Source of the DNA: a bacterium
Lineage (GTDB): Bacteria; Elusimicrobiota; Elusimicrobia; Elusimicrobiales; UBA9959
NCBI GenBank assembly: GCA_021811315.1
Contig: JAJZPF010000010.1
Span: 3,109-67,108, forward strand
Reading direction: 5' to 3'
Length of the DNA: 64,000 bases
Shown here: positions 12,468 through 64,000 of the stretch, in pieces
How the letters are laid out: the number at the start of each line of letters is the position of its first letter
Numbering within the stretch: position 1 is the stretch's first letter
The notes under the pieces: model-generated
Seen by the model: only the letters and a program-made list of their open reading frames with translations
Told to the model about the DNA's origin: nothing
The model's database searches: none
Made by a program: the position numbers and the translations under genes

Positions 12468-12468
12468 C

Positions 12469-30494: not shown

Positions 30495-30574
30495 ACTCCC
30501 CATAAGGAAGATTCCCATCGCCCACGCATAATGTGGCTATGGGAAAATAATGAAACCGCACTAACACTGAAAAA

Positions 30575-35278: not shown

Positions 35279-35307
35279 GTTGTCCTGGCTTATGTTGTCC
35301 TGGCTTA
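35279..35307. repeat. Tandem duplication of a 14-mer GTTGTCCTGGCTTA (35279-35292, 35294-35307); the second copy contains the permease stop codon
   Basis: Read directly. Confidence 0.8.
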
Positions 35308-46133: not shown

Positions 46134-46837
46134 CTTAAGGTTTCCTCGCCGTTAATTTTAAGGCTTTTAAACCGGGCGTAGGCGCCCTGCGGGTCGCCGC
46201 CGGCGAAGCCGCCAAGGAAGAATTTCTGGGACGGCGCGTCTTCCGCCGAAGAGGCGTCCAGGCGGAGGACGGGGATGAAGGTCTTCCTGTTCATGGCGTA
46301 GGAAACCGTGAAATAGTTCCCGTCGCGCGCGAAGCGCAGCACTTTCAGCTTCTTCGGAAGCGGGAAGGGCTTTCCCCCGGGCAGGCAGAAGAGCGTGAGG
46401 CTGTCGTCCGCGGGCCTGGGGCCGTTCTGGCGCTGCACCAGCACCTTAAGCAGCGCGGAGGCGTTCCCGACGGAAGGCCGCGCCGCGTCGCCGCCCATCC
46501 AGATGCCGTAGGAGAAGCGCTTCATCTGGCCGGGCGGTATTTTAAAATCGGCCTCCAGGTCCGCCTGCCACTTCGTCCCGGAAAGCTCGCGCGAAAGTAT
46601 GAGGCCGGGGGCGTAGCCGTCGGAGGGCTCGTCGCGGCTGTCGTCCTGCCGGGCGGTAAGATGATAGTAAAGGCCGTCCCCCCTGACCTCGTGGGAGCCG
46701 TATTCGTCGTTCCAGCCCGTCCAGGTTTCCCAGTCGTCGGCGGCAAAAGCCCCTTTCTTGAATATCGCGGGGCTGCAGCCAGCGCTAAACATCGCGGCGG
46801 CCGCGATCGCCGCAAGAAATAAAAGATCTTTTCTCAT
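46130..46837 (-). CDS. Hypothetical lipoprotein (beta-rich, 235 aa)
   Basis: Signal peptide with lipobox-like MFSAGC; 4-nt overlaps on both sides. Confidence 0.55.
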
Positions 46838-47337
46838 CCTAATTCATTTCCCCCGCTCCCGGTCCGCGATCTTCGATTCTCGACTCCCGATTCCCGATTT
46901 GCTTTGCTGTCCAGCCACAGGGTCACCGGGCCGTCGTTGATTATTTCCACTTCCATGTCCGCGGCGAAAACGCCGGTCTTGACCGGCACGCCCTTGCCCC
47001 GCAGCGCTTTTACGAAATATTCATAGAGCCTGCTGGCTTCCGGGGGCCTGGCGGCCGCGGTGAAATCCGGGCGGCGGCCCTTCGAGGCGTCGCCGTAAAG
47101 AGTGAACTGCGAGACCACCAGCGCTTCGCCCTTGACGTCCAGCAGCGAGTGGTCGAATTTGCCGGAGGAGTTGGAGAAGACCCGCAGGTTGGCCGTCTTT
47201 TCGGCCAGAAGCTCGGCGTCCGCCTCAGCGTCGCCCTCCCCCACCGCGAGCAGCACCACGAGGCCGCGGCCTATGGTTTCATGCGCGCCGGCGGTTTTTA
47301 CACCGCCGCGTTTCACCCGTTGTATAAGCGCCCTCAT
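46834..47337 (-). CDS. dtd: D-aminoacyl-tRNA deacylase with a 23-aa C-terminal tail encoded by the heptamer-repeat region
   Basis: [27 protein letters not shown]; the tail [23 protein letters not shown] follows the usual end of the family. Confidence 0.85.
46867..46901. repeat. Heptamer array: 5 units (CGATCTT CGATTCT CGACTCC CGATTCC CGATTTG)
   Basis: Read directly; 30 nt upstream of the lipoprotein ATG (46837) and inside the dtd tail. Confidence 0.8.
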
Positions 47338-48766: not shown

Positions 48767-49071
48767 TCAGTTCCCGCTTCCCTGGTTCTGCTGCGCCTGT
48801 TTCAGCATCCCGGACATGTCGGGCATCCCGGCGCCGCTTTTCTGCGTTCCGGTTTTGTCGGGGGCGTCCGTGCCGAAGGGCTTCGCGCCCTGCAGGCGGG
48901 GTATGGTCGTGCGCTGCTTAAGCTTTTTCGAAGCGGCGGCTTTCTTCTTCCCCGGGGCCGGCGCCGGAGGGATCTTCGCGGTTTCCGGCTGCGCCTGCTT
49001 CGCCGCGGCCTGCCGGGGGGGGCCGCGGCCGGCTCTGTTCTCGTCCCGCCAGTTATTTGAGATATAAACAT
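48767..49071 (-). pseudogene. Small low-complexity (Ala/Lys/Pro/Gln-rich) gene whose ATG (49071) and coding-like frame are out of register across a G8 tract
   Basis: The downstream frame (to the stop at 48767) has high third-position GC but no canonical start. The ATG at 49071 is in the frame that a one-base change in the tract at 49015-49022 would join to it. Confidence 0.3.
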
Positions 49072-49096
49072 TTATTTTTATTGTAAAATAATCTAC

Positions 49097-49429
49097 ATGG
49101 GAATCTGGAAAAACGCTTTTAAAATACCGGAGCCCCCGGAGCCTACTCCTGAAGAAAAAAAGCTGCTGGACGACCTTGCGGAAAAAGCCGCGCGGCGGGG
49201 GCTGGGCGAAATAGCCGCTTTCACGGTTGAAAGCACCGCTCCCCTTCACAGCCTGGGCGCGCAGGGGATGATCTTTATCGAGCCGGCGCTTACGACGCTG
49301 TTTAAAAAAGAGGACGTGGAAAAGTACAGGGCCCTGCTGGAGAACAGCAAGGCCGTGAAATATTTAGTGAGCCGGCTGAACGCCGAGACGGAAGAAAAGG
49401 AAGCCACCAATGTCAAAAAAAGACCTTGA
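49097..49429 (+). CDS. Hypothetical 110-aa protein, first gene of the GlmL-like module
   Basis: ATG 7 nt after a TAAAAT box; overlaps the next gene by 20 nt; no family recognised. Confidence 0.5.
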   Translation: MGIWKNAFKIPEPPEPTPEEKKLLDDLAEKAARRGLGEIAAFTVESTAPLHSLGAQGMIFIEPALTTLFKKEDVEKYRALLENSKAVKYLVSRLNAETEEKEATNVKKRP

Positions 49430-51203
49430 AATCATTATAGCCACCGACTGCGGCAGCACTACCACGAAAGCCATCCTCATAGAAAAGAAAGGCGATACCT
49501 ACCGCCAGACTTTCCGCGGCGAGGCCCCGACCACGGTCGAGGCCCCGTTCGAGGACGTCACCAAGGGCGTGCTGAACTCGATCACGGAGGTCGAGGAACT
49601 CTCCGGCCGCAAAATACTCGACGGCGAAAGGATCATAACTCCCAACAGCGGCAACGTGGGAGCGGACATCTACGTCTCCACCTCCTCGGCCGGCGGCGGC
49701 CTGCAGATGATGGTCGCCGGGGCCGTGAAAGCGATGACCGGCGAGTCCGCGCAGCGCTGCGCCCTGGGCGCCGGCGCCATCGTGATGGACGTGCTGGCCT
49801 CCAACGACGGCCGCGCCGACCATGAGAAGATAGAGCGCATCCGCCAGCTGCGCCCGGACATGATGCTCCTCTCCGGCGGCACCGACGGCGGAACCATCAC
49901 CCACGTGGTCGAGCTCGCCCAGTTCCTGAAGGCCGCCGACCCCAAGCCCCGCCTCGGCGCCTCCTACAAGCTGCCGGTGATCTACGCCGGCAACAACAAG
50001 GCCCACGCGCAGATCAAGGAAATACTCGGCGACCGCACGGCGCTGATCATCACCGAGAACCTCCGCCCCACGCTGGAGAAAGAGAATTTGATGCCGGCCC
50101 GCCACAAGATCCACGACATCTTCCTCGAGCACGTGATGCAGCAGGCCCCCGGCTACCCGCGCCTGATGAAGATGGTGGGCGCCCCGATAATGCCCACTCC
50201 GGCCGCGGTAGGCACTATGACGGAAAAGTTCGCCAAGGCCAATAAATTCAACGTCCTGGCCGTCGATATCGGCGGCGCCACTACCGACGTGTTCTCGGTC
50301 TTCTCGGAAGTTTTCAACCGCACCGTGAGCGCCAACCTGGGCATGAGCTACTCCATCTCCAACGTGATGGCCGAGGCCGGCCTGGCCAATATCCTGCGCT
50401 GGCTCCCTTTCGACATGGACGAGCAGGACCTCAGGAACCGCCTGAAGAACAAGATGATAAGGCCCACCACCATCCCCCAGACGGTAGAGGACCTGCAGAT
50501 CGAGCACGCGGTCGCGCGCGAGGCTCTCCGCCTGGCTTTCGACCAGCATAAGGCGCTGGCCGTGGGGCTGAAGGGCGTCCAGCAGGAGCGCTCCATCTCC
50601 GACGCTTTCGACCAGACCGCCTCCGGGGCCAGCCTCATCAACGTGATGCGGCTGGATTACGTGATAGGCTCAGGCGGCATCCTCGCGCATTCCCCCCGCC
50701 GCACCCAGTCCATGCTTATGATGATAGACGCCTACCAGCCCGAGGGCATCACCCGCATGGCCGTGGACTCCATCTTCATGATGCCGCACCTGGGCGTGCT
50801 GGCGCAGATCAGCGAGAAAGCCGCGCTGGACGTGTTCTACCACGACTGCCTGGTGAGGCTGGGCACGTGCCTCGCGCCTAAGGGCCTGGCCAAGGAAGGC
50901 CAGCTTATCATGGAGTGGGAAGTGACCGGTTCCGACGGCAGCCGCCAGGCCGGCGAGCTCCGCTTCGGCGATATCCTCCACGTCCCCTTCGCGGCCCCCA
51001 AGGCCAGGCTGGTGGCCAAGCCGGTCAAAGGCTTCGACATGGGCGCCGGCTCCGGCAGCCGCGTAGAGGCGGACATAGAAGGCGGCGTGGTCGGCCTGGT
51101 GCTGGACGGGCGCGGCAGGCCCTTCAACATTTCCAAGGAGCCGGCAAAGCGCCGCGACGACCTGAACAAGTGGTACAAAGCGATGGGGATGTACCCGGTC
51201 TAA
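49410..51203 (+). CDS. GlmL/MutL-like ASKHA-fold ATPase (glutamate mutase L family-like, 597 aa)
   Basis: IIATDCGSTTTKAILIEK and VLAVDIGGATTDVFSVF phosphate-binding motifs typical of the GlmL family. Confidence 0.75.
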   Translation: MSKKDLEIIIATDCGSTTTKAILIEKKGDTYRQTFRGEAPTTVEAPFEDVTKGVLNSITEVEELSGRKILDGERIITPNSGNVGADIYVSTSSAGGGLQMMVAGAVKAMTGESAQRCALGAGAIVMDVLASNDGRADHEKIERIRQLRPDMMLLSGGTDGGTITHVVELAQFLKAADPKPRLGASYKLPVIYAGNNKAHAQIKEILGDRTALIITENLRPTLEKENLMPARHKIHDIFLEHVMQQAPGYPRLMKMVGAPIMPTPAAVGTMTEKFAKANKFNVLAVDIGGATTDVFSVFSEVFNRTVSANLGMSYSISNVMAEAGLANILRWLPFDMDEQDLRNRLKNKMIRPTTIPQTVEDLQIEHAVAREALRLAFDQHKALAVGLKGVQQERSISDAFDQTASGASLINVMRLDYVIGSGGILAHSPRRTQSMLMMIDAYQPEGITRMAVDSIFMMPHLGVLAQISEKAALDVFYHDCLVRLGTCLAPKGLAKEGQLIMEWEVTGSDGSRQAGELRFGDILHVPFAAPKARLVAKPVKGFDMGAGSGSRVEADIEGGVVGLVLDGRGRPFNISKEPAKRRDDLNKWYKAMGMYPV

Positions 51204-51206
51204 AAA

Positions 51207-51280
51207 CGATCGAGAATCGGGGATCGGGAATTCAGGAGCAGATTCCCCCGATTCCCGACTCGCGATCCCTGATTCATCGG
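51207..51280. repeat. Inverted heptamer arrays: purine-rich ATCGAGA ATCGGGG ATCGGGA facing pyrimidine-rich CGATTCC CGACTCG CGATCCC TGATTCA
   Basis: Read directly, between the GlmL-like stop (51203) and the next start (51319). Confidence 0.75.
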
Positions 51281-51318
51281 TATATGGTTTTCAATTTGGT
51301 TTTTTAAGGAGACAGCTT

Positions 51319-52443
51319 ATGGCGCACGCATATACACCCGGACTTAAAGTAATGCCCTGCACGCTGCTGAAGAAGAAGAGGCTCCTGCCTATTCCCGGAA
51401 AGGTGCTTGCCGAAATGGGCCGGCAGGTGGATTCCCTGGACGTGGTGGCGCAGACCGAACTGCCGGGGAAAGTCTTCTCCGTCAACGTGGCCAACCGGCT
51501 GGCCGTCGGCCCCGACGAAATAAAGAATTTCATGACCAAGGGCGAAGGCGACGCCGTGAAGAAAGGCGAGACCATCGCCGAGAACAAGCCCTTCCTGAAA
51601 TGGTTCAAGACCTCCGTCGAGTCCCCCGTGGACGGCGTCGTGGAGGCCGTCTCCCTTATCACCGGCCAGGTGCTGCTGCGCGAGCCGCCGAAAGTCCTCC
51701 CGATAAAAGCCTATGTGAAAGGCAAAGTGGTGGAGGTCACGCCCAATTTCGGCGTCGTTATCGAGACCGAGGGCACCTTCATCCAGGGCATCTTCGGCGT
51801 GGGCGGCGAGACCAACGGCGAGATCTGCATGGCCGTCGCGAGCCCCGACGAGGACCTGACGACCGAAGATATCAAGGAGAACCACAGGGGCAAGATAGTC
51901 ATCGGCGGGAAACACGCCAGCCTTTCCACCATAAAGCGCGCCATCGAACTGGGCGTTAACGCCATCGTGGTGGGCGGGATACACGACCGCGACCTGCGCC
52001 AGCTGCTGGGCTACGATATCGGCGTGGCGGTGACCGGCCATGAACAGCTGGGGATCACCGTGATCGTTACCGAGGGGTTCGGAATGATCCCGATGGCGGA
52101 ATATACTTTCAAGCTGCTCGCCTCCCGCAACGGCGAGAGCGCCTCGGTGTCGGGCGCGACGCAGATCCGCGCCGGGGTGATGCGCCCCGAGATCATAGTC
52201 CCGGGCTTTCCCAAGAACGTGACCGAGTCCAAGAAGGACCAGGGCCGCGGCTGGATAGAGCCCGGCGACCCGATACGGATAATCCGCGAGCCGCATTTCG
52301 GCGTGATAGGCACGGTCAGATCCCTGCCCCCCGAGCTTACGGTGATCGGCAGCGAGAGCCACGCCCGGGTGCTGGAAGTGACCCTGGACAGCGGCGAAGT
52401 CATCGTCGTCCCGCGCGCGAACATCGAAGTGCTTGAAAAATAA
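51319..52443 (+). CDS. Hypothetical 374-aa protein with a lipoyl/hybrid-barrel-like segment and KOW-like beta segments
   Basis: Strong ribosome-binding site TAAGGAGA; VKKGETIAENKPFLKWFKTSVESPVDGVVEAV resembles a biotinyl/lipoyl-type hammerhead; no family assigned. Confidence 0.6.
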   Translation: MAHAYTPGLKVMPCTLLKKKRLLPIPGKVLAEMGRQVDSLDVVAQTELPGKVFSVNVANRLAVGPDEIKNFMTKGEGDAVKKGETIAENKPFLKWFKTSVESPVDGVVEAVSLITGQVLLREPPKVLPIKAYVKGKVVEVTPNFGVVIETEGTFIQGIFGVGGETNGEICMAVASPDEDLTTEDIKENHRGKIVIGGKHASLSTIKRAIELGVNAIVVGGIHDRDLRQLLGYDIGVAVTGHEQLGITVIVTEGFGMIPMAEYTFKLLASRNGESASVSGATQIRAGVMRPEIIVPGFPKNVTESKKDQGRGWIEPGDPIRIIREPHFGVIGTVRSLPPELTVIGSESHARVLEVTLDSGEVIVVPRANIEVLEK

Positions 52444-52461: not shown

Positions 52462-52556
52462 GATCGGTAATCAGAGCCAGGGTCGAAAAAAACCGCGCTG
52501 ATTGCCGATCTCTGATTCCCGAATACCGGATCCCCGGTCCTCTGCTTTCGACTCCG
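52462..52556. repeat. Degenerate heptamer region with an inverted pair GATCGGTAATCAGAG (52462-52476) / CTCTGATTCCCGAAT (52510-52524)
   Basis: 12 of 15 positions complementary; downstream 7-nt periodicity CCGATCT CTGATTC CCGAATA CCGGATC. Confidence 0.6.
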
Positions 52557-52561
52557 TGGTT

Positions 52562-54727
52562 ATGGCTAAAAAAACCAAAAAACCTTATGTCAAACCGGCG
52601 CCGGTCCCGGAGCCGAAGGACCGGTTCCCGGCCTGGCTTGTCTGGCCGGTCGTCGCGGCCTGGGGTGTTTTTGTCCTTAAAAGCTACTATTCAAAATTCC
52701 CCGTTAATCCGGACCTGCTTTCCAGCATCCTCTCGCCGGAGCAGTATACCGCCGGCCTTTTCAGCGTCCTGCCCGGGCATTTCCTGAACGTCCTGTACGC
52801 CGCGGTTTTCCTGTTCGCCTGCTTCTCGGCCGGCCGCGCGGCCCTTAAGGCGGCCCGGTTCGGCTTTGCCGGCGCGCTTGAGGAAGCGGTTTTTTCCTGC
52901 GGCGCGGGTTTCGGCCTGCTGGCCGCTTATGTTTTCATCCTTGCCGCTTTCAAGCTGCTTTACTTCTGGCCCGTGGCCGCTTTCATTCTCCTGGCCGGCG
53001 CCGCGGGGATCTATTCCCTGCGCAAGGAGCCCCTTCGCGCCGCCGGCGGCCCGGCCGCGTTAGGCCCCGCCGACTTCGCCGCGCTGGCGGTGCTCCTGCT
53101 GGCCATGCTGCTGAACCTGGCGGGGGCGCTGAGCCCCGAGATCTTCTACGACGCCCTGGTCTACCATCTTGCGGTCCCCAATTATTTCGTGATCAAACAC
53201 GGGATAGCCCCGATGCCCTATAATTTTTATTCCGACCTGCCTTTCACGCACGGGATGCTTTACGCCGCGGCGCTGCTGCTTAAGGGCGAGGCCCTGGCCA
53301 AATTTATAAATTACGGGGCGGGGCTCCTGACGGCCGGGGCCGTGCTGGCCCTCGGCGCGCGCCGTTTCTCCCTCAGGGCTGGGCTCTGGGGCGCGGCTAT
53401 ATTCTATACCGTAGGCCACGCCATGCTCGCCTCCTGGGCTACCGGCACCGAAACGCTGCTGATGTTCTTCTCCACCCTCGCGCTCTACGCGGTCCTGAAC
53501 CGTACCGACGAAGAGCCGCGCTGGCTCTGGCTCGCGGCCTGCTTCTGCGGCCTGGCCATGGGCGTCAAGTACACGGGCTTCTTTACCGCCGTGGGCGTTA
53601 TGCTGGTTTACGCCTGGCCGGCCCGCTCCCGGCCGCTGGCCGCGGCTAAGAACCTGGCGCTCTTCACGCTGGTCGCCTCTTTCTTCGTCGGGCCCTGGCT
53701 GATAAAGAATTATCTTTACCAGGGCGACCCGGTTTTTCCTTTCGCCCTGGGCCTCTTCGGCGCGGGCCCGCATTCCGACGCGCTGAAACTTAAGGAATTT
53801 ATCAGCCAGGCCAGCCAGATGGGGCCGCTGAGGCCGCTGTACTGGCTGACCATGCCCTGGAAGATCACGATGGGCCAGGTCCCGAACTCCGAATATTTCA
53901 GCCCGCTTTTTATCGTCATGCTCCCGCTCGCTTTCCTCCTGTCGGGGGCGGCGGGGCCGGCCCTCTCCGGCCTCTGGATATTTTTTCTTTCCGTCTGGGC
54001 GGGCTTTTCGGTCTCTTCCACCATGGTGCGCTTCCTTATGCCGGCCTATCCCGCGGCCGGGCTGATAATGGCGGCCTACCTTTTTTCACCGGGCCACAAG
54101 GCGCTGAAAAGCGCGCTCAAAGCCGCGGCGCTGGCCGTCTGCTTCACCGGGCTTTACTGGGCCGTGGTGATCTTTTATTCCCAGGGACGCTGGCGGCCCC
54201 TGGCCGGGGCCGTGGCCGTGGAGGACTACCTGAGCCATACCCAGCCCACTTATCCTTACAGCAGCTACGCCGGGGTAAAATACATCAACGAAAAAACCGC
54301 GCCCGGCTCCAAAGTCCTGCTGGTCGGCGACGAGCGGAGCTATTATCTTAAGAAAGATTTTATCGTAAGTTCGGTCTATGACAATACGGCCGCTGTGGAA
54401 TACGCCGCGGCGTCCAAAGACGGCGAGGACCTTTACGCGCGGCTTAAAGCCGACGGCGTTACGCATATACTTCTAAACACGGCCGAGGCCATAAGGCTGG
54501 GCACGAGTTACCGGATGTTCTACTGGGACGAGCGCGCCCGCGGCGTTTTCTATTCCTTCTGGGACCGGCATGCCAGGGAGGTGTTCTCCTTCGACGAAGC
54601 GCAGAACGGGCAGGTCTTCAACCGCGTTCTGGTCTACGAGCTCGACGATAAACTCCCCGCCGGCGTTCCCCCGGCCTTCAATGTGATGAAAGAAATTATC
54701 ATGAAGAACATCGAAGCGAAACATTAG
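52562..54727 (+). CDS. GT-C fold membrane glycosyltransferase (family 39 / ArnT-PMT-like) with a C-terminal soluble domain
   Basis: More than 10 predicted TM helices, first-loop motif PEIFYDALVYH, length and topology typical of PMT_2 proteins; internal ATG at 52562. Confidence 0.65.
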   Translation: MAKKTKKPYVKPAPVPEPKDRFPAWLVWPVVAAWGVFVLKSYYSKFPVNPDLLSSILSPEQYTAGLFSVLPGHFLNVLYAAVFLFACFSAGRAALKAARFGFAGALEEAVFSCGAGFGLLAAYVFILAAFKLLYFWPVAAFILLAGAAGIYSLRKEPLRAAGGPAALGPADFAALAVLLLAMLLNLAGALSPEIFYDALVYHLAVPNYFVIKHGIAPMPYNFYSDLPFTHGMLYAAALLLKGEALAKFINYGAGLLTAGAVLALGARRFSLRAGLWGAAIFYTVGHAMLASWATGTETLLMFFSTLALYAVLNRTDEEPRWLWLAACFCGLAMGVKYTGFFTAVGVMLVYAWPARSRPLAAAKNLALFTLVASFFVGPWLIKNYLYQGDPVFPFALGLFGAGPHSDALKLKEFISQASQMGPLRPLYWLTMPWKITMGQVPNSEYFSPLFIVMLPLAFLLSGAAGPALSGLWIFFLSVWAGFSVSSTMVRFLMPAYPAAGLIMAAYLFSPGHKALKSALKAAALAVCFTGLYWAVVIFYSQGRWRPLAGAVAVEDYLSHTQPTYPYSSYAGVKYINEKTAPGSKVLLVGDERSYYLKKDFIVSSVYDNTAAVEYAAASKDGEDLYARLKADGVTHILLNTAEAIRLGTSYRMFYWDERARGVFYSFWDRHAREVFSFDEAQNGQVFNRVLVYELDDKLPAGVPPAFNVMKEIIMKNIEAKH

Positions 54728-54797: not shown

Positions 54798-56579
54798 ATG
54801 CTTATAAAACGCTTCATTTTCTCCTCCTTGTGCTTCATTCTTCTCTCGGGCTTCTCGCCCGCGCGCGCTTTCGACCCCTCCGGCTGGCAGACCAGCAAAG
54901 ATTATCCGCTGATCGGCTCGCCGGAGGCTAAAAAAGGCGGGACGCTCCGCTCTACCTGGCTGAGCTTCCCCCCGACGCTGCGGGTCCTCGGCCCTAATTC
55001 CAATACCATGGAGAGCAGGGACCTGCAGAACATGGTCTACGAGACCCTGCTGGGCCTGCACCCGGAGACGCTCGAGTACATGCCCGGCCTCGCCGATTAC
55101 TGGAAGATCTCTCCCGACAAGCGCAAGTTCTATTTCCATATAAACCCGAAGGCCCGCTGGGCCGACGGCAGCCCGGTTACCGCCGAGGACGTGGTGGCCA
55201 GTTGGGAATTCAAGGTCCGCAAGGATATCAAGGACCCTTATTCCTTGATGATGTGGAGCGAGAGCTACGAGAAACCGGTGGCCGAGAGCGCCGACATCGT
55301 CTCGGTGAAGACGAAGAAACTGCACTGGCGCCTCTTTATGTATTTCAGCGGCACTGCGATCTACCCGGCAAAAGAGCTCAAGAACCTGACCGGGGATAAA
55401 TACCTGGAAGATTATAACTGGAAGATGTTCATGGGCTCAGGCCCCTATGAATTGAAGCCGGAGAATATCAGGAACGGGGAATCCATCACGCTGACCCGCC
55501 GCCCGGATTACTGGGGCGAGAAAGAAAGAGGCAATATAGGCCTCAATAATTTCGACAAGCTCACCTGGCTGGTAGTGATGGACGAGGAGCTCGCTTTCGA
55601 GAAGTTCAAGAAGGGCGAGCTTGATTATTATTACGTCAATAAGTCCCAGCGCTGGCTCGAGGAATCCGATTTCGACAAGGTGCAGAAAGGCTGGATCCTG
55701 AAGCGCAAGATCTTCACCCGGGCGCCGCAAGGTTTTTCCGGCCTGGTCTTCAATATGCGCAAGCCCCCCTTCGACGACCGGAACGTCCGCAAGGCTTTCG
55801 CCTACCTTTATAACCGGGACAAGCTGATAGACAAGCTTTTCTTCGGAGAATACGGCTTTATCGACAGCTATTACCCCGGCAGCGACTGGGGCAATCCGGA
55901 CAACCCGAAGATACGCTATAACCCGCGGATGGCCAAGCGCCTGCTTGCGCGGGCGGGCTGGAAGACCCGCAACCAGGACGGCTGGCTGGAGAAAGACGGG
56001 AAGCCTTTCGAGATAACCCTGGAATACGGAGACCCCGGCTCGACCAGGATACACAAGGTGGTGCAGGAAGACTTTAAGAAAGCCGGCATCAAGATGAACC
56101 TCAAGCTCATCGACCGGAACACGCTGATGAAGAAGGTCGGCGAGCGCAATTTCACCATCCATTCCCAGGCCTGGGGCGCGCTGCAGTTCCCAAACCCCGT
56201 CAGCTCCTGGAGCGGCGAGCTGGCGGACAAGAACGACAATAACAACCTCCCGGGCTTCAAGAACGCCGAGGTGGACGCGCTCTGCAAAGAATACGACCTG
56301 GCTTTCGATGTTAAGACCCAGAAGCGCCTTATCCGCAGGATAGACGGCCTAATCTTCAGGGCGCATCCTTACGCGCTGGGCTGGAGCGCGGGTTTCAGCC
56401 GGATACTTTACGTTAACCGGTTCGGCCACCCGGATAAATATTTCTCCAAGATCGGGGATTACAGGGGCATAATTTCCCTGTGGTGGGCGGATCCCGACAA
56501 GGAAAAAGCGCTGGCGGAGGCCGTGAAGAGCGGCAAGAGCCTGCCGGTAGGGGAGACGGAACTGCGGCCCTGGGACTGA
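54798..56579 (+). CDS. ABC transporter substrate-binding protein, family 5 (peptide/opine/nickel type; YejA-like length)
   Basis: Signal peptide; family-5 SBP patterns such as KKGGTLR, WADGSPVTAEDV, RPDYWG. Confidence 0.85.
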   Translation: MLIKRFIFSSLCFILLSGFSPARAFDPSGWQTSKDYPLIGSPEAKKGGTLRSTWLSFPPTLRVLGPNSNTMESRDLQNMVYETLLGLHPETLEYMPGLADYWKISPDKRKFYFHINPKARWADGSPVTAEDVVASWEFKVRKDIKDPYSLMMWSESYEKPVAESADIVSVKTKKLHWRLFMYFSGTAIYPAKELKNLTGDKYLEDYNWKMFMGSGPYELKPENIRNGESITLTRRPDYWGEKERGNIGLNNFDKLTWLVVMDEELAFEKFKKGELDYYYVNKSQRWLEESDFDKVQKGWILKRKIFTRAPQGFSGLVFNMRKPPFDDRNVRKAFAYLYNRDKLIDKLFFGEYGFIDSYYPGSDWGNPDNPKIRYNPRMAKRLLARAGWKTRNQDGWLEKDGKPFEITLEYGDPGSTRIHKVVQEDFKKAGIKMNLKLIDRNTLMKKVGERNFTIHSQAWGALQFPNPVSSWSGELADKNDNNNLPGFKNAEVDALCKEYDLAFDVKTQKRLIRRIDGLIFRAHPYALGWSAGFSRILYVNRFGHPDKYFSKIGDYRGIISLWWADPDKEKALAEAVKSGKSLPVGETELRPWD

Positions 56580-56596
56580 GGCCTCACCCTTAAATT

Positions 56597-57643
56597 ATGC
56601 ACGGAATGATCACCTATTTTATCCGCCGGCTGCTTCTGATCCCGGTCACTTTCATCGCTATAACTTTCCTGGTCTACTTCATGCTGCGCGTCGTGCCGGG
56701 CGGCCCGATAGAGCAGGCGCAGCTGCAGATAAAGATGGCGATGATGGGCGAGGGCGGCTCCTCAGGCATGGCCAGCGAGCAGGGCGAGCTCCAGATCCCG
56801 GCAGCGGCGATGGCCGAGCTGAAGAAGTATTACCATCTCGACAAGAGCATTCCCGAGGGCTACGCGCGCTGGCTGTGGGGCATCTGCCGCCTCGATTTCG
56901 GCCGCTCCTACGTTTACAGCGAGCCCGTGCTCGACGTGATAATTTCAAAGTTCCCGGTCTCCATCTATTTCGGCCTGATAGGCTATTTCGCTTCCTGGCT
57001 GATCTGCGTGCCTCTGGGCGTGACCAAGGCCATAAGGCATAAGTCGGGTTACGACACTGCCACCTCCATCATAGTCTTTCTCGGCTATTCCATCCCCGGT
57101 TTCGTGGCCTGCCTGATGCTGATGGTGCTGCTGGGCGGCGGCAGCTACCTCGACATTTTACCCCTCGGCGGTTTCCGGTCCGAGAACTGGGCCCAGCTCG
57201 GCTTCTTCGCCAAGATCGCCGACCAGCTGCGGCATACGGCCATCCCGGTGCTCGGCTACGTTATGGGCGGCTTCGCCACGATGACCATATTGATGAAGAA
57301 TTCCCTGCTGGATAACCTGGGCGCGGATTATGTGCGCACGGCCTTCGCCAAGGGCCTCTCCGAGAACCGCGTCCTCTTCGTTCACGCTATGCGCAATTCC
57401 CTGATCCCGATGACCGTGGGCATCGGCCACGCGCTCGGCCTGCTTTTCGCCGGCTCTTTCCTTATAGAGAAGACCTGCAATATCCAGGGTATGGGCCTGC
57501 TCAGCTTTAATTCGGTCATACAGCGCGACTACCCGGTGATACTCGGAACGCTGGTGTTCCTGGTGTTGATAAGGCTGATGGGCAATATTTTCTCCGACGT
57601 GGTGTGGGCGCTGATAGACCCCAGGATAAGGTTCGGCAAATGA
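56597..57643 (+). CDS. ABC transporter permease (YejB/OppB-like)
   Basis: MITYFIRRLLLIPV..., YVRTAFAKGL EAA loop. Confidence 0.85.
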   Translation: MHGMITYFIRRLLLIPVTFIAITFLVYFMLRVVPGGPIEQAQLQIKMAMMGEGGSSGMASEQGELQIPAAAMAELKKYYHLDKSIPEGYARWLWGICRLDFGRSYVYSEPVLDVIISKFPVSIYFGLIGYFASWLICVPLGVTKAIRHKSGYDTATSIIVFLGYSIPGFVACLMLMVLLGGGSYLDILPLGGFRSENWAQLGFFAKIADQLRHTAIPVLGYVMGGFATMTILMKNSLLDNLGADYVRTAFAKGLSENRVLFVHAMRNSLIPMTVGIGHALGLLFAGSFLIEKTCNIQGMGLLSFNSVIQRDYPVILGTLVFLVLIRLMGNIFSDVVWALIDPRIRFGK

Positions 57644-59022
57644 TCGTACTAAAGCTTGTAGAGACCGCCGTCCTGCTGACCGCCGGGCATCTTTTTACCC
57701 ACAGGGCGCTGCCCTCTCTTTACGTCAAGACGGGCGCCGCGCTCGGCTTCGACATGAAGCTCGCCCCGCACTGGGAAAAGCGCATCAAGCGCTTTAAGAC
57801 CATAAAGCGCGGCTATTATTCTTTCCTTATAATTACCACGCTGTTCGTGATGTCCCTGTTCCTGGAGTTCATGGTGAACAATAAACCGCTGTTCATCCGC
57901 TACGGCTCCAAGGTCTCTTTTCCGGCCGTGGCCGAGTGGACCGATCAGCTTCTTTTCTTCAAAGCCCCCCGCCCGATGAACATGAAAGCCGATTTCGGGC
58001 AGATAGGCGACGACGAGGTCGATTACCGGCTGTTCGCGGCGGCCCGCAAAGACCCGTCCCTGTTCGATTCCCAGGCGAAGGCGCTTGAGGCCGAGATAGG
58101 CGAGATCCGCAGGCAGCTCGCCGTCAAGCCGGCCCCCCGCGCCACCCCGGAGGAACTGCAGGACTACAGGGACCTGCAGGAGATAGTCCCCGATATCGAG
58201 GCCGAGCTCAAGGCCCTGGCCGAAGCAAAGAGCATGTTCGCGGCCGGCAAGGCGGCGATACTGATGCCGGTCTACCCATATTCCCCGCGGGAGCATCTGC
58301 TGGATATGCCGGGCAGGCCGCCGCACAGGCCCGGCAATGACCACCTGCTTGGCACCGACGATTCAGGTACCGATGTTTTCGCCCAGCTGGTCTACGGCTT
58401 CAGGACCTCCATGTCTTTCGCGCTGATAGTCTCCATCCTCGGCTATCTCATCGGCATCGTAGTCGGCGGGGTGATGGGCTACTTCGGCGGCTGGACCGAC
58501 ATTCTTTTACAGCGCTTCATAGAGATCTGGGCCTCCATCCCTTTCCTGTTCATGCTTATCATTATCGCGTCTATGGTCCAGCCCACTTTCCTGCTGCTGG
58601 TTTCGCTGATAGTGCTGCTGCAGGGCTGGGTGGGCATCTCCTACTATATCCGCGGCGAGTTCTACCGCGAGAAGTCCAGGGATTATGTGCACGCGGCCGT
58701 GGCCATGGGCGCGAGCGAATGGTCGGTGATGATGAAGCATATCCTGCCCAACTCGCTGGTCCCGCTGGTCACCTTCGCGCCTTTCAGTATCGTCGGGACT
58801 ATCGGCTCGCTGGTGTCCCTCGACTTCCTCGGCTTCGGCCTGCCGGTGGGGACGCCCAGCTGGGGCGTGCTGCTGGACCAGGGGATGAAATACCTGAAGT
58901 ATTACCCGCACCTTATTCTTACCCCCTCCATCGCGCTGGCGGTGACGCTCTTCATGGTGGTCATGGTCGGCGAGGCGGTGCGCGAAGCTTTCGACCCGAA
59001 GGTTTTCTCGAGGCTGAGATAA
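57640..59022 (+). CDS. ABC transporter permease with a long N-terminal extension (YejE/OppC-like)
   Basis: ATGA overlap with the upstream stop; HLLGTDDSGTDVF and AAVAMGASEWSVMMKHILPNS. Confidence 0.85.
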   Translation: MIVLKLVETAVLLTAGHLFTHRALPSLYVKTGAALGFDMKLAPHWEKRIKRFKTIKRGYYSFLIITTLFVMSLFLEFMVNNKPLFIRYGSKVSFPAVAEWTDQLLFFKAPRPMNMKADFGQIGDDEVDYRLFAAARKDPSLFDSQAKALEAEIGEIRRQLAVKPAPRATPEELQDYRDLQEIVPDIEAELKALAEAKSMFAAGKAAILMPVYPYSPREHLLDMPGRPPHRPGNDHLLGTDDSGTDVFAQLVYGFRTSMSFALIVSILGYLIGIVVGGVMGYFGGWTDILLQRFIEIWASIPFLFMLIIIASMVQPTFLLLVSLIVLLQGWVGISYYIRGEFYREKSRDYVHAAVAMGASEWSVMMKHILPNSLVPLVTFAPFSIVGTIGSLVSLDFLGFGLPVGTPSWGVLLDQGMKYLKYYPHLILTPSIALAVTLFMVVMVGEAVREAFDPKVFSRLR

Positions 59023-59023
59023 T

Positions 59024-60028
59024 ATGCCCGGAACCCCCGAAAAGAAAAAACTGCTGGAAGTCAGAGGCCTGAAAACCTCATTCCAGGTCGACGACAAAAG
59101 AGCCAGGGCCGTGGACGGCGTGGATTTTCATATTTACGAGAACGAGGTCCTGGGCCTCGTCGGCGAGTCCGGCTGCGGCAAGTCCGTGACAGCGCTGAGC
59201 CTGCTCCGCCTGATCCCCGACCCCCCGGGCAAAATAACCGACGGGGAGATAATTTTCAGGGGCAGGGACCTGCTGAAGCTGTCCTATCCGGAGATGCGCA
59301 AGATCCGCGGCAAAGAGATCTCGATGATCTTCCAGGAGCCGATGACCTCCCTGAACCCGGTCTTCTCCATCGGCTGGCAGCTGATGGAGGCAATCCGCTT
59401 CCACCAGGAAGGCCTGACGAAAAAGCAGATCGAGGCCCGGGCCGTGGAGATGCTCGGCCTGGTCGGCATCCCCTCCCCTAAAGAGCGTCTTAACGATTAT
59501 CCCCACCAGTTTTCCGGCGGCATGCGGCAGCGCGTGATGATCGCTATGGCGCTGTCCTCCGACCCCGCCCTCCTTATCGCGGACGAGCCGACGACGGCGC
59601 TCGACGTCACCATCCAGGCGCAGATCCTGGACCTGATGCTGGAGGTGAAAAAAAAGACGCACGACGCGGCTATCCTGCTCATCACCCACGACCTGGCCGT
59701 GGTGGCCGAGACCTGCCAGCGCGTAGTCGTGATGTACGGCGGGAAGATCCAGGAAATTTCCGACGTGAAGCCGCTTTTCGACGGGCCGCTTCACCCGTAT
59801 ACGGTAGGCCTCCTCAAGTCCCTGCCCGGCTTCAAGAACGAGCCCGGCAAGCGCCTGCCCGTTATAGAAGGGATGGTTCCCGACATCCTGAGCTTCCCCA
59901 AAGGCTGCAAATTCAACAACCGCTGTTCCGAGGTCATGCCGGTCTGCCGCGAGACCGAGCCGGAGCTGGTCGAGGTCTCCCCCGGCAGGCAGGTAAGGTG
60001 TCACAAATGTCCAAAAAAACAGCCGTAA
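59024..60028 (+). CDS. ABC transporter ATP-binding protein (OppD-like)
   Basis: [27 protein letters not shown]. Confidence 0.9.
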
Positions 60029-61026
60029 AAGACAGCCCGGCGGGCGGGAATATCCTGGAGGTCTCTGACCTCAAAGTGCATTTCCCCATACACGGCGGGC
60101 TGCTCCTCCGCCAGGTAGGCGAGGTCAAGGCCGTCGACGGCGTATCTTTTTCTATGAAGCCCGGCGAGACGCTGGGCATGGTGGGCGAATCCGGCTGCGG
60201 CAAGACCACCATCGGCAAGGCCCTCATTAACCTAGTGAAGTCCACTTCCGGAAAAATAATGTTCCCTGACAGCAGCGGCAAGATGGTTGACATCGCCAAT
60301 CTGAGCCGTTCGGCCATGCGCCCGTTCCGCTCGCGCATCCAGATGGTCTTCCAGGACCCTTATTCCTCGCTTAATTCCCGGCTGTCGGTGGAGTCGATCG
60401 TCGAGGAGCCGCTGAATATCCATCTGCCGGACCTGAGCCGCAAAGAGAAGCGCGAGAAGGTCGCCTGGCTGCTTGAAAAAGTGGGGCTCCGGGCCGCCTA
60501 CGCCTCCCGCTACCCGCACGAGTTCTCGGGTGGTCAGCGCCAGCGCATCGGCCTGGCCAGGGCCCTCGCCACCAACCCGGCCTTCATCATCGCCGACGAA
60601 CCGGTCTCGGCCCTGGACGTTTCCATCCAGGCGCAGATCATAAACCTGCTGCAGGACCTGCAGGACGAATTCAAACTGACCTATCTTTTCATCGCCCACG
60701 ACCTCTCCGTCGTGGAGCATATCAGCTCCCGGATAGCCGTCATGTACCTCGGCAATATGGTGGAACTCGGCCCGGCCCGCGATATAAATAAAGATCCTCT
60801 GCACCCGTATACCAGGGCCCTTATGTCGGCCGCCCCCCAGCCGGACCCTTATAAGACCCGGGAAGGGCGGATAATATTGAAAGGGGACGTCCCCAGTCCC
60901 CTCGCCAAACCGTCCGGCTGCGGCTTCAGGACGCGCTGCCCGATGGCCAAAGAAGATTGCGCCCTTAAGGTCCCGGTCCTGGTCGAAAAAAAACCGGGGC
61001 ATTTCGCGGCCTGCCCGTACGTCTAG
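60007..61026 (+). CDS. ABC transporter ATP-binding protein (OppF-like)
   Basis: GESGCGKTT, FSGGQRQR, IIADEPVSALD; the ATG at 60007 is preferred over the GTG at 59998. Confidence 0.9.
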   Translation: MSKKTAVKDSPAGGNILEVSDLKVHFPIHGGLLLRQVGEVKAVDGVSFSMKPGETLGMVGESGCGKTTIGKALINLVKSTSGKIMFPDSSGKMVDIANLSRSAMRPFRSRIQMVFQDPYSSLNSRLSVESIVEEPLNIHLPDLSRKEKREKVAWLLEKVGLRAAYASRYPHEFSGGQRQRIGLARALATNPAFIIADEPVSALDVSIQAQIINLLQDLQDEFKLTYLFIAHDLSVVEHISSRIAVMYLGNMVELGPARDINKDPLHPYTRALMSAAPQPDPYKTREGRIILKGDVPSPLAKPSGCGFRTRCPMAKEDCALKVPVLVEKKPGHFAACPYV

Positions 61027-61108
61027 CGCCGCGGCGCGTTCCGGACGGTTTCCCCCGGGTGATTTTCGCTTGCCTGAAAAATCCATAAAGTGTATATTAT
61101 TGTAAGTT

Positions 61109-62380
61109 ATGATCAAACATAAAGTCTTTCTCACCTTATTTTTATCCTTATCCGCCGTGTGCGGCCTTTTTGCCGCCAAGCCAGCGCCCGCCGCGAAAAA
61201 AGCGGCTTCCCTCCCCCCGGCGGCCGTCCTCGGCGGCGTTACGGCGGCGGACATGCCTTACGACGTGGGAGGCGCCGTCCTCCTCAGGTGGGCCGTCAAC
61301 CCCTCCGATACTCCGGCCACTACCTACACGGTTTACGCTTCCTCCCTCCAGGCCGGCGGCTGGGTAGAGGCGGAGAGTTTCGCCTCCACGGCTAAAACAG
61401 GCAAAGACATCGATCTTCCTTTCTGGGCCTGGGACGGTTCCGCCTCTGAACACGCCGTAAAGATCGAACTTACGAATTTCTTCGGCGAGATAAAGGACGG
61501 GGATGTTTTCCACTTCAAGGTCGCCGCGCTGGAGAACGGCAAGCTTGTCGCCGAATCCCTGCCGCTGGACGCTTCCACCACCAGCAACTGGTTCCGGCTG
61601 GACCGGCTGAATAACGTCGTGATGCTGCTGCTCGTGACCATCGTGTTCTTCTGGGCGGTCTCCCACGCCAAGCGCAAGGGCCTGTTTATCCGCCGCATAG
61701 CCGGCCTCGACGCCATCGACGAGGCCATCGGCCGCGCCACGGAGATGGGCAAGCCGATCTATTACGTCCCGGGCATAGGCGACATGACCATGGTGTCCAC
61801 CATCGCCTCCACTTTCATCCTCGGCGAGGTCGCTAAAAAAGTGGCGCAGTACGATACGACCATAAAAGTGCCGCATTACAACCCGGTCGTTATGACCGTG
61901 TCGAAAGAAGTCGTAAAGCAGGCTTTCCTCGAAGCCGGGCGCCCGGACTCCTTCCGCGAGGATATCAACCAGTTCATCAGCTCCGACCAGTTCTCCTACG
62001 CCGCTTCCGTCGACGGCATGATCTCCCGCGAGAAGCCGGCGGCCTGCTTCTTCATGGGTTACTTCATGGCGGAGTCCCTGCTGCTGGCCGAAGTGGGAGC
62101 CACCACCGGCGCTATACAGATAGCCGGCACCGATTCGGAGAGCCAGCTGCCCTTCTTCTTTACCGCCTGCGACTATACGCTTATCGGCGAGGAGCTCTAC
62201 GCCGCCGGGGCTTATCTTTCTAAAGACCCCATGCTGCAGAGCGCTCTGAAAGCCCAGGATTTCGGCAAGCTGGTGGTTATGATCTCCGTAGCCCTGGGCG
62301 TGATCCTGACCGCGGTCGGCGCCCTGATGAAATGGGGCGCCTTTACCCAAACGATCGCCGATCTCTTCAAGGCTTATTGA
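61109..62380 (+). CDS. Hypothetical membrane protein (423 aa): signal/anchor, FN3-like ectodomain, TM, about 230-aa conserved-looking region, C-terminal TM
   Basis: ORF with good coding character; hydrophobic segments VVMLLLVTIVFFWAV and LVVMISVALGVILTAVGALM; no family confidently recognised. Confidence 0.6.
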   Translation: MIKHKVFLTLFLSLSAVCGLFAAKPAPAAKKAASLPPAAVLGGVTAADMPYDVGGAVLLRWAVNPSDTPATTYTVYASSLQAGGWVEAESFASTAKTGKDIDLPFWAWDGSASEHAVKIELTNFFGEIKDGDVFHFKVAALENGKLVAESLPLDASTTSNWFRLDRLNNVVMLLLVTIVFFWAVSHAKRKGLFIRRIAGLDAIDEAIGRATEMGKPIYYVPGIGDMTMVSTIASTFILGEVAKKVAQYDTTIKVPHYNPVVMTVSKEVVKQAFLEAGRPDSFREDINQFISSDQFSYAASVDGMISREKPAACFFMGYFMAESLLLAEVGATTGAIQIAGTDSESQLPFFFTACDYTLIGEELYAAGAYLSKDPMLQSALKAQDFGKLVVMISVALGVILTAVGALMKWGAFTQTIADLFKAY

Positions 62381-62386
62381 TAACTT

Positions 62387-63055
62387 ATGAAATTAATCAA
62401 AAAAACCATACCGCTGGCCATCGTCTTCGTTTTCGGCATCCTGACGCTGCTGACTTATTATGTGCCGCACAAGCATTCCGTGGACTTCCTGGAAACGATG
62501 AATAAATGGGAAAATATCGTGACGGCTTTCGCGTTCTTCCTGGGCTTGATAAGCCTTTTTTACGCCCATTCCACCAAGATCTCCCGCAAGGCCGACGGCT
62601 GGGGCTACAGCCTTTTCGTCTTTGTAGGCTTCCTCGCGATAATAATCCCGGCCTATATCAGCAAAGGCAAGAACATGAACGGCGCGGAGCTGACCTGGAT
62701 GGGCTGGGCTTTCCAGTATATCTACAACCCGCTTTCGGCCACCATGTTCGCCGTGCTGGCTTTCTACATCGTTTCCACCGCGTATAAGTCTTTCCGCATA
62801 AAGTCCCTCCAGGCCTTCGTCCTCTTCGTGGCGGCGATGTTCCTGATACTCGGGAACGTCCCGCTCGGCCAGATCATCTGGGACAAAATGCTGGGCTGGA
62901 CCGGCTATAACATCTCGCAGGTCGTGGATTGGATCATGCACGTGCCGGCCGTGGCCGGAAAGCGCGGCATCATGATAGGCATCTCCATAGGCGCGGTAGT
63001 CACGGCCCTTAAAATTATTTTCGGTATTGAACGTCAATACCTCGGCAAGGATTGA
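62387..63055 (+). CDS. Hypothetical polytopic membrane protein (222 aa, about 6 TM)
   Basis: Begins 6 nt after the upstream stop; strongly hydrophobic throughout. Confidence 0.6.
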   Translation: MKLIKKTIPLAIVFVFGILTLLTYYVPHKHSVDFLETMNKWENIVTAFAFFLGLISLFYAHSTKISRKADGWGYSLFVFVGFLAIIIPAYISKGKNMNGAELTWMGWAFQYIYNPLSATMFAVLAFYIVSTAYKSFRIKSLQAFVLFVAAMFLILGNVPLGQIIWDKMLGWTGYNISQVVDWIMHVPAVAGKRGIMIGISIGAVVTALKIIFGIERQYLGKD

Positions 63056-63060
63056 ACCTT

Positions 63061-63885
63061 ATGTTAAAAGACAAACTTAACGCTGTTCTCAAGATAGACA
63101 GGCGCTGGATCTTCCTGGCCCTGACCGTGGTCCTGTTCGGCGCCATCATCCATCCCCTCGGCCTGCTGAGTAAAAATATCGCCAGGGACACGCAGAACGC
63201 CTACGAGTTCATGGACAAGATCCCGGCCGGTTCCTTTATCCTGCTCGACCTGGACTACGATCCCTCGACCGCCCCCGAGCTCAGCCCCCAGGCCATGGCC
63301 GTGGCCCGCCACGCTTTCAGGAACAATCTGCGCGTCGGGGTCGTAACCTATTCCGCCGGGGCCACCGGTCTCATCGAGCAGCTCTTCGCCGTAGTGCCCG
63401 GCGAGTTCAAGAAAGAATACGGCAAGGACTACGTGATCCTTCCCTACCAGCCTAACGCCGTGGCCGTGATGACGCAGATGGCTTCCGACCTTTACGGGAT
63501 CTACGACAAAGATAAGGACGGCAAGGACACCAGGTCGATGCCGGTCATGAAAGGGATACAGAACTACAAGAACATCTCCCTCGTGGTCTGTATAGCCGGA
63601 ACCAGCATCACGGATATCTGGGTCGCCTATGTAGGCGACAAATACAACGTTCCTTTTATCGCCGGGGTGACCGCGATAAGCCAGCCCGGCTACGGGCCCT
63701 ACCTGCAGAAGAAGCAGATGAGGGGCCTCCTCGGCGGCATGAAAGGCGCCGCGGAGTACGAGCACCTTATTAAAACGCCGGGCAAAGGCTCCTCCGGCAT
63801 CGACGCGCTGAGCCTGGCCCATGTAATGGTCGCGGCGCTGATAATAGTTTCCAATATCGCGATGGTGATCTTGAAGTATTTATAA
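63061..63885 (+). CDS. Hypothetical bitopic membrane protein (274 aa): N-terminal TM, soluble alpha/beta-like domain, C-terminal TM
   Basis: The ATG at 63061 (AAGGA upstream) is preferred over the TTG at 63052; WIFLALTVVLFGAII and VMVAALIIVSNIAMVIL. Confidence 0.6.
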   Translation: MLKDKLNAVLKIDRRWIFLALTVVLFGAIIHPLGLLSKNIARDTQNAYEFMDKIPAGSFILLDLDYDPSTAPELSPQAMAVARHAFRNNLRVGVVTYSAGATGLIEQLFAVVPGEFKKEYGKDYVILPYQPNAVAVMTQMASDLYGIYDKDKDGKDTRSMPVMKGIQNYKNISLVVCIAGTSITDIWVAYVGDKYNVPFIAGVTAISQPGYGPYLQKKQMRGLLGGMKGAAEYEHLIKTPGKGSSGIDALSLAHVMVAALIIVSNIAMVILKYL

Positions 63886-63926
63886 GCGGGCGAAGGCCCT
63901 AATTTTCAGCTGGAGCGTGCATTAAA

Positions 63927-64000
63927 ATGTCTCATACTGTCCTTATAGCCGGAGCCTGGATCTCCGCCGGCCTGACGATCTTCCTGTTCAGTTTCCTTTA
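63927..64000 (+). CDS. 5' end of a further membrane protein gene (runs off the window)
   Basis: ATG at 63927, MSHTVLIAGAWISAGLTIFLFSFL is hydrophobic; only 24 codons are visible. Confidence 0.35.
   Translation, partial: MSHTVLIAGAWISAGLTIFLFSFL

Follow-up and report, generated by a model that had tools for sequence, protein, structure and literature searches.

Envelope machines of the ATP-binding cassette (ABC) type, such as LptB2FGC, MlaFEDB and LolCDE, combine a cytoplasmic ATPase with two polytopic subunits and with transmembrane (TM)-anchored subunits that carry periplasmic domains. In PilM-PilN-PilO, GspL-GspM, MreB-MreC-MreD and FtsA, it is an actin-fold protein that is coupled to membrane proteins with periplasmic domains, and in Na+-NQR and Rnf a peripheral subunit with an N-terminal barrel-sandwich-hybrid domain occurs together with two small polytopic subunits and a TM-anchored subunit with a periplasmic domain. 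A further point of comparison is GlmL (MutL), which accompanies the B12-dependent glutamate mutase as an accessory protein and is its putative reactivase; ATP-dependent, chaperone-like reactivation is the role presumed for GlmL relatives. Here we describe a locus that has something in common with each of these. It lies in a 64,000-nt stretch of Elusimicrobia DNA (hereafter the window), at the end of which four genes at 61109-64000 (g1 to g4) code for membrane proteins. An initial annotation of the window had presented these genes as a four-gene module. We find instead that they are the membrane half of a system of seven genes, the other three of which code for a small soluble protein (u113), an ATPase of the GlmL/MutL family (MutL597) and a second soluble protein (u374). 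We put at about 0.5 the probability that the seven proteins form a conserved, ATP-coupled inner-membrane machine with g1-g4 as its integral-membrane half.

The seven-gene system fits none of the kinds of membrane machine compared here. Unlike the ATPases of LptB2FGC, MlaFEDB and LolCDE, its ATPase has the ASKHA (actin/Hsp70/hydantoinase-A) fold, and none of the seven proteins matches ABC_tran or a permease family. PilM, GspL, MreB and FtsA are ASKHA proteins too, but MutL597 belongs to the hydantoinase/GlmL branch, its partners show no detected homology to the membrane proteins of those systems, and no pilus, secretion or division genes were found near the seven-gene loci. With Na+-NQR and Rnf, homology is limited to the generic barrel-sandwich domain of u374, and the seven-gene system differs in having an ASKHA ATPase. 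Finally, MutL597 shares with GlmL a Pfam model and the ASKHA motifs, but it scores below the equivalog and subfamily cut-offs, has an extra C-terminal domain and is linked to four membrane proteins, with no mutase genes near. Among the families of the seven proteins, one has a named relative (GlmL), one is a bare domain of unknown function and five are in no Pfam family; the PDB holds no sequence relative of the six proteins searched (g1-g4, u374 and MutL597). A literature search returned no relevant account of the function of the system, of PF13941 in such a context or of a GlmL-like link.

A genome scan with an alignment of g1 recovered 80 loci, from Elusimicrobiota, Methylomirabilota, Nitrospirota, Planctomycetota, Binatia and Latescibacterota. 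The window genes and the neighbours of close relatives were compared by tblastn with 83 related loci from genome and metagenome assemblies (designated by L-numbers below), of which 23 are of the Elusimicrobia type and 60 come from other phyla; the window makes the 24th Elusimicrobia-type locus. Wherever the contig reaches far enough, g1-g4 are found together on one strand, in the same order in all loci but one, and g2 was found in 82 of the 83. The sole rearranged membrane half is on a Planctomycetia contig (L050:8001-15554), where g1, g3, g2 and g4 extend over about 7.5 kb with other genes between them. In the other phyla, three further genes lie 5' of g1, coding for u113 (about 110 residues), MutL597 (597 residues) and u374 (374 residues). 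The u374 gene is directly upstream of g1 in 58 of these 60 loci (median gap 33 nt), the remaining two being cut at the contig end; the MutL597 gene is present in 55 of the 60, and 60 of all 83 related loci have a u113 homologue 5' of the ATPase gene. The seven genes adjoin one another in Binatia, Planctomycetota and other loci, where start and stop codons overlap or only short gaps intervene. The window also carries the soluble half, at 49097-52443, 8.7 kb upstream of g1.

Between Elusimicrobia and the other phyla, identity is 67% for MutL597, 55% for u374, 47% for g1, 42% for g2, 39% for g3 and 44% for g4. No conservation between phyla was seen for genes beyond the seven, with a Memo-like gene as one partial exception, and because the flanking genes vary in this way we take the seven genes, and not the four of the initial annotation, as the unit. 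Their conservation is near that of a housekeeping complex. The carriers, in at least six phyla, are Nitrospirota (including nitrite oxidisers), Methylomirabilota, Elusimicrobiota, Planctomycetota, Binatia and Latescibacterota. The initial annotation had made its proposal depend on two points, and on both the outcome agrees with it: g1-g4 are kept together in other genomes, and profile searches matched them to no characterised family.

MutL597 matched the whole length of the Pfam MutL model (PF13941) with residues 9-479, at E = 2e-127 and 426 bits against a cut-off of 27. Its scores with the NCBIfam models for GlmL were below the cut-offs, at 232.9 versus 475 bits for the equivalog NF040745 and 168.2 versus 204 bits for the subfamily TIGR01319. 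There was a match to Pfam Hydantoinase_A (E = 8e-5), and a match to MreB-like_C was not significant (E = 0.026). The phosphate and adenosine motifs of ASKHA proteins, DxGSTxxK, DIGGATTD and GSGG, are invariant in the alignment, and mean column identity is 78% (23 sequences from several phyla). With invariant motifs and a strong match to the MutL model, the protein looks active as an ATPase. Beyond the model, MutL597 has a conserved C-terminal extension of about 120 residues. Three cysteines, C14, C480 and C487, are invariant across phyla, and a C-x6-C pair opens the extension; by analogy with ASKHA activases of the BcrAD/HgdC type, these cysteines could form a metal or Fe-S site. Genes for B12-dependent mutases (glmS/glmE, oraS/oraE) were found neither in the window nor in the related loci nor among the 25 commonest neighbour families, and no PDB relative of MutL597 was found by sequence.

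The two other soluble proteins are less easily placed. No match to u113 was found in Pfam or NCBIfam. Among 25 aligned members of the u374 family, sub-threshold Pfam matches were to Biotin_lipoyl in 17, to RnfC_N in 15 (best E = 9e-5), to KOW in seven and to NQRA_N in six, and a sequence-profile search of the PDB with u374 gave nothing significant. NqrA was tried as a candidate relative and rejected: the hhalign alignment with Vibrio cholerae NqrA (a query checked to be identical to PDB 7xk3_A) covers only the N-terminal barrel-sandwich domain, residues 17-118, with a probability of 17%.

The initial annotation had been unable to assign any of the membrane proteins. This still applies to g2, g3 and g4, for which there was no match in Pfam, NCBIfam or PDB sequences, but g1 is a member of a catalogued Pfam family, DUF6754 (PF20539; E = 2.4e-112, 374.7 bits where the cut-off is 27, over positions 2-250 of a 257-position model). 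The g1 orthologues of Nitrospira, Planctomycetota and Binatia likewise match DUF6754; g1 had no NCBIfam match, and a sequence-profile search found no PDB match. An FN3-like ectodomain, predicted earlier for g1, is indeed present. It forms a beta-sandwich in the AlphaFold2 model, and Foldseek aligned it with FN3 domains with a probability of 1.0, the matches including 1x5f and 3mpc (template-modelling scores, TM-scores, of 0.65 and 0.63, both relative to the target). The Pfam fn3 model has no match in the g1 of the window itself and does match longer members of the family (E = 6e-23). Foldseek matches for the g1 model were dominated by the ectodomain, and none was to the DUF6754 domain. The latter forms a Rossmann-like alpha/beta domain between two TM helices. 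Two motifs of g1 that had been singled out in a conserved-looking region both fall in the most conserved part of the protein. With 4.6 and 3.0 Lys+Arg on its two flanks, the alpha/beta domain would by the positive-inside rule be cytoplasmic, and hence beside the soluble proteins.

The breadth of the DUF6754 family was assessed by scanning the DUF6754 part of g1 against 1.84 billion cluster representatives. Counted as clusters at 50% identity, the family has 2153 that pass E <= 1e-3, of which 739 also pass E <= 1e-30. The DUF6754 domain is C-terminal in all family members. The shortest ectodomains have about 36 residues and the longest more than 1000, while the cytoplasmic domain keeps at least 50% identity. 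Among the members P0269, P0288, P0344, P0325 and P0294, some long ones have FN3 repeats and one has a PQQ/BamB-like beta-propeller; the two longest, of about 1270 residues, have N-terminal regions of about 1000 residues without a Pfam match. Constraint in these proteins lies on the cytoplasmic domain, and variation is tolerated in the exposed part. DUF6754 is without a known function or a solved structure, and a literature search gave no relevant account of DUF6754/PF20539. The domain layout, the likely topology and the fixed partnership with six other genes are new for this family.

Alignment-averaged hydropathy profiles agree with the six TM segments first proposed for g2. Loops rich in Lys and Arg follow TM2 and TM4, and positive-inside analysis places both termini of g2 in the cytoplasm, if the rule holds here. 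For g3, the initial annotation had an alpha/beta-like domain in a bitopic protein. The domain is there; however, the AlphaFold2 model (predicted local distance difference test, pLDDT, 91.6; predicted template-modelling score, pTM, 0.86) shows a TM helix at either end, the N-terminal one a signal-anchor, and between them a Rossmann-like domain of six strands. The protein therefore crosses the membrane twice and is not bitopic. The positive charge of g3 sits at its termini, and the Rossmann-like domain is, by the same rule, probably periplasmic. None of 542 homologues of g3 has a Pfam domain. A search for a specific fold relative with Foldseek gave only generic Rossmann matches, at E >= 1.8e-3, to GT-B C-terminal domains, alcohol dehydrogenases and transhydrogenase domain III (dIII). 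The fourth protein, correctly described as a TM protein that leaves the window, has about seven TM segments by hydropathy and positive-inside analysis; its full length is known from relatives (243 residues in L085, 246 in L001 and 244 in L002). Family alignments of g2, g3 and g4 show no invariant Cys and no cofactor motif. Paralogy among the parts was also considered and rejected, profile-profile probabilities being at most 3.5% for g1-g3, g2-g4 and the other pairs. The secondary-structure elements of g1 and g3 are in the same order, yet there is no sequence signal for common descent.

The open reading frame (ORF) list and the sequence agree with the earlier description of g1-g4 as four tightly packed genes on the plus strand, with gaps of 6, 5 and 41 nt. 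An alternative start for g3, TTG at 63052, would give a product of 277 residues. The nearest homologues of g1 are in Elusimicrobia metagenome bins, and the JGI metagenome contig L084 has the same gene order, with a g1 product identical to that of the window. In the closest relative, L085, in which the g3 product is 95% identical to that of the window, convergent SurA-like and MscS genes come after g4, so the operon ends with g4; L001 and L002 have the same arrangement.

The promoter proposed for g1-g4 in the initial annotation, a TATTAT patch followed by eight nucleotides and the ATG, lies in the 82-nt spacer between the stop codon of the preceding ATP-binding cassette (ABC) importer operon (61026) and g1. 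TATTAT is at 61095-61100, 8 nt before the g1 ATG. Taken alone, the promoter-scan score of TTGCCT-17-TATATT at 61070-61098 is no better than chance for the region. Its conservation is more telling. In 13 aligned Elusimicrobia loci, a -35 element TTGC and a -10 element TATTA (TATATTA block) are invariant, with fixed spacing; the sequence further 5' belongs to a GT-C or an ABC gene and is not alignable among the loci, and the promoter is conserved whatever gene adjoins it upstream. An own promoter for the g1-g4 sub-operon thus appears well supported, as had been proposed. The g1 ATG lies 8-10 nt after the -10 box and is not preceded by a Shine-Dalgarno sequence, a geometry kept in the 13 loci, which suggests that the transcript is likely to be leaderless or nearly so. 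The promoter motif occurs once in the window, and the -35-like motif CTTGCCTGAAAAA does not recur there as a regulatory site.

A similar arrangement is found at the other half. Upstream of the u113 ATG, the block TTTTATtGTAaAATAAT is kept in at least 12 Elusimicrobia loci, and the u113 half probably has a conserved promoter and a leaderless transcript too. Elsewhere in the window, a motif like the Shine-Dalgarno sequence is found in about nine of 48 ORFs. A TAnnnT hexamer resembling a -10 box, 5-8 nt before the start and without a Shine-Dalgarno sequence, precedes the genes at 30733-31290 (-), 35305-36177 (-), 40275-40982 (+), 46834-47337 (-) and 49097 (+). Leaderless transcription may be widespread in this Elusimicrobia genome. 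The coordinates of all elements of the locus are given in Table 1.

Table 1. Positions in the window of the seven genes, their predicted promoters and domains, and the genes inserted between the two halves
Feature	Position	Strand	Description and basis
u113 promoter-like element	49065..49092	+	Promoter scan; TAAAAT -10 box ends 7 nt before ATG
u113	49097..49429	+	110 aa; small soluble protein; first gene of the system; 20-nt overlap with the MutL597 gene
MutL597	49410..51203	+	597 aa; GlmL/MutL-family ASKHA ATPase
u374	51319..52443	+	374 aa; soluble; N-terminal barrel-sandwich hybrid (lipoyl/RnfC_N-like), middle alpha/beta region, KOW-like C-terminus
GT-C membrane glycosyltransferase	52553..54727	+	About 720 aa; PMT/PMT_2-type, LIC_10190-like; Pfam PMT, PMT_2
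Opp/Dpp-type peptide ABC importer operon	54798..61026	+	Five genes; ORFs
g1-g4 promoter	61070..61100	+	TTGCCT, 17-nt spacer, TATATT(AT); promoter scan
g1	61109..62380	+	423 aa; DUF6754 protein
g1 signal peptide	N-terminal	+	
g1 FN3-like ectodomain	aa 45-156, nt 61241-61576	+	AlphaFold2 beta-sandwich; Foldseek
g1 TM1	aa 164-190, nt 61598-61678	+	AlphaFold2 model
g1 alpha/beta domain	aa 194-371, nt 61688-62221	+	Five-stranded parallel, Rossmann-like, predicted cytoplasmic; AlphaFold2 model, charge distribution
g1 TM2	aa 374-406, nt 62228-62326	+	AlphaFold2 model
g2	62387..63055	+	222 aa; six TM segments
g3	63061 (ATG)..63885	+	274 aa; two TM helices and Rossmann-like domain
g4	63927 (ATG)..64000	+	First 24 codons; leaves the window

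The two halves are separated in the window by six genes of other kinds. Of the 23 Elusimicrobia-type loci, 16 have the GT-C gene between u374 and g1, against none of the 60 from other phyla; it is an Elusimicrobia-specific insertion and probably not a core part. The peptide ABC importer had served as a landmark in the initial annotation, which placed the module downstream of it. This position proved to be lineage-specific: the operon occurs at the same junction only in L015, L017, L019 and L020 besides the window, that is, in five of 24 Elusimicrobia-type loci and in no other phylum. It marks an Elusimicrobia sub-clade and is not part of the seven-gene system, and a functional link between g1-g4 and the importer was dropped because the insertion is confined to that sub-clade. 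In L084, the gene just 5' of g1 carries the Pfam domains ABC_tran and oligo_HPY. In an Elusimicrobiota single-cell genome (L026), the genes of a TldD/PmbA metallopeptidase pair separate u374 from g1 (4619-7826) and a gene for an SBP_bac_5 peptide-binding protein comes after g4 (11965-13725); an M16 peptidase gene follows g4 in L032 (5088-7679). Together, the Opp, TldD/PmbA, SBP_bac_5 and M16 neighbours amount to a weak, lineage-restricted association with peptides.

A gene of the Memo family (Pfam PF01875, E = 9e-41) lies 3' of g4 on the same strand in L034 (11641-12876) and in 37 further loci, nearly all of Nitrospirota. Radical SAM genes are near in two surveyed neighbourhoods, which suggests a possible AmmeMemoRadiSam link with the Memo gene. 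A u374 homologue (P0400) on a 4.2-kb contig bears the NCBI label of the cyanobacterium Petrachloros mirabilis; it could be genuine or a contaminant from a Nitrospira-like organism. A reading of the locus as a defence system was dropped, since the PADLOC models matched none of the seven proteins, and an Rfam search found no RNA elements in the region. Elsewhere in the window, positions 1-2000 have a G+C fraction of 0.47, against about 0.6 in the remainder, an ORF for 1915 residues occupies 23993-29740 (-), and a tRNA-Gly(CCC) gene at 30574-30644 (-) is the sole RNA gene found.

How could the seven proteins work together? We propose that g1-g4 would assemble as one inner-membrane complex, with g2 and g4 as its polytopic core. 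To this, g1 and g3 would each add a pair of TM helices and one alpha/beta domain, that of g1 on the cytoplasmic face and that of g3 on the periplasmic face. A soluble module of MutL597, u374 and u113 would dock on the strongly conserved alpha/beta domain of g1. Binding and hydrolysis of ATP by MutL597 would drive conformational changes that the TM helices would relay across the membrane, to the FN3-like stalk of g1 and the g3 domain in the periplasm. The whole may then be an ATP-coupled transport or envelope-assembly machine, and the initial annotation of g1-g4 as a transporter, secretion or envelope-biogenesis complex was a reasonable guess. In the genome of the window, the two halves would be separate transcription units, each with its own conserved promoter. 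It also seems possible, if more doubtful, that the seven genes represent a previously unrecognised class of ATP-powered membrane machine, with a motor of the ASKHA (GlmL) type in place of an ABC, AAA+, P-type or rotary one.

Several observations weigh against an ATP-coupled machine of seven subunits. Elsewhere, members of the GlmL family serve B12-dependent mutases as soluble accessory proteins and are not motors of membrane machines. Our data bear on gene content, co-conservation, families, folds, likely topology and the conservation of promoters, and from them we infer the physical assembly of the seven proteins, the coupling to ATP and a transport-type function; the topology of g3 and g4 comes from the positive-inside rule alone, and the AlphaFold2 model of g1 is of moderate confidence (pLDDT 70). 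Pfam searches with 87 flanking proteins revealed no common theme among the neighbours, and the cargo can therefore not be inferred. Moreover, four Elusimicrobia loci (L004, L014, L016 and L022) have no soluble half within 6-8 kb of g1-g4, which means that the two halves can be unlinked in the genome.

This last observation, together with the 8.7 kb between the halves in the window and the conserved promoter that g1-g4 have of their own in Elusimicrobia, would also be expected if g1-g4 were a stand-alone transporter or secretion complex, perhaps driven by an ion gradient, and the upstream ATPase genes were merely frequent neighbours. We consider this quite unlikely. The u374 gene abuts g1 in nearly all loci of five other phyla (58 of 60), often with overlapping codons, while other neighbours vary, and the strongest conservation within g1 falls in its cytoplasmic domain, which suggests a cytoplasmic partner. 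Alternatively, the ASKHA protein and g1 could form an envelope scaffold or sensor, the former as a membrane-tethered cytoskeletal or chaperone element, like those of MreB-MreC-MreD, FtsA or PilM-PilN-PilO, and the latter as its TM anchor, with a variable ectodomain that contacts or senses the envelope. ASKHA proteins commonly dock on bitopic membrane proteins, and an ectodomain that varies while the cytoplasmic domain stays constrained, as in the g1 family, is typical of anchors and receptors. However, we know of no case in which the hydantoinase/GlmL branch forms filaments, the match of MutL597 to MreB-like_C was not significant, and two conserved polytopic subunits would be left unaccounted for; this explanation too is improbable in our view.

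The position of MutL597 in the hydantoinase/oxoprolinase branch of ASKHA proteins (Pfam Hydantoinase_A and MutL matches) allows for another role of ATP. Hydantoinase, oxoprolinase and acetone carboxylase act on their substrates in an ATP-dependent manner, and g2 and g4 could form an uptake channel for a small molecule, perhaps derived from peptides or amino acids, which the hydantoinase-A-like ATPase would activate or trap after import. The peptide-related neighbours of some Elusimicrobia-type loci (Opp in five, and those of L026 and L032) are consistent with such vectorial metabolism. They are present in few loci, though, and in none from Nitrospirota, Methylomirabilota or Planctomycetota; the system has no catalytic partner of the hydantoinase-B type, and the variable FN3 and propeller ectodomains of the g1 family poorly suit a small-molecule permease. 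We regard vectorial metabolism as unlikely. A redox or ion-motive complex like Rnf or Na+-NQR would have u374 in the place of the N-terminal part of NqrA/RnfC, g3 in that of NqrC/RnfG, and g2 and g4 as the polytopic pair. The subunit architecture is alike, u374 has weak matches to RnfC_N and NQRA_N in 15 and six of its 25 aligned members, transhydrogenase domain III is among the fold matches of g3, with a target-relative TM-score of 0.5, and MutL597 has its invariant C-x6-C pair. Against this, g1-g4 have no matches to Rnf-Nqr, NQR2_RnfD_RnfE or FMN_bind, even at E <= 1 or E <= 0.05, and g2, g3 and g4 lack the invariant cysteines or cofactor motifs of a redox subunit. The barrel-sandwich domain to which the NqrA alignment is limited fits Biotin_lipoyl equally, and no counterpart of NqrB/RnfD or NqrF was found. 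Such a complex is thus very unlikely, and the ATP-coupled inner-membrane machine remains the explanation that we prefer.

The seven genes are strongly conserved in at least six phyla, including groups that matter in the environment, namely nitrifiers (Nitrospira) and nitrite-dependent methane oxidisers (Methylomirabilis). With the gene set, the likely topology and the promoters defined, the system is open to testing, and DUF6754 gains a context. If our proposal is correct, ATP would be coupled to a membrane process in a new manner, by an ASKHA-fold ATPase joined to a membrane complex of four subunits.

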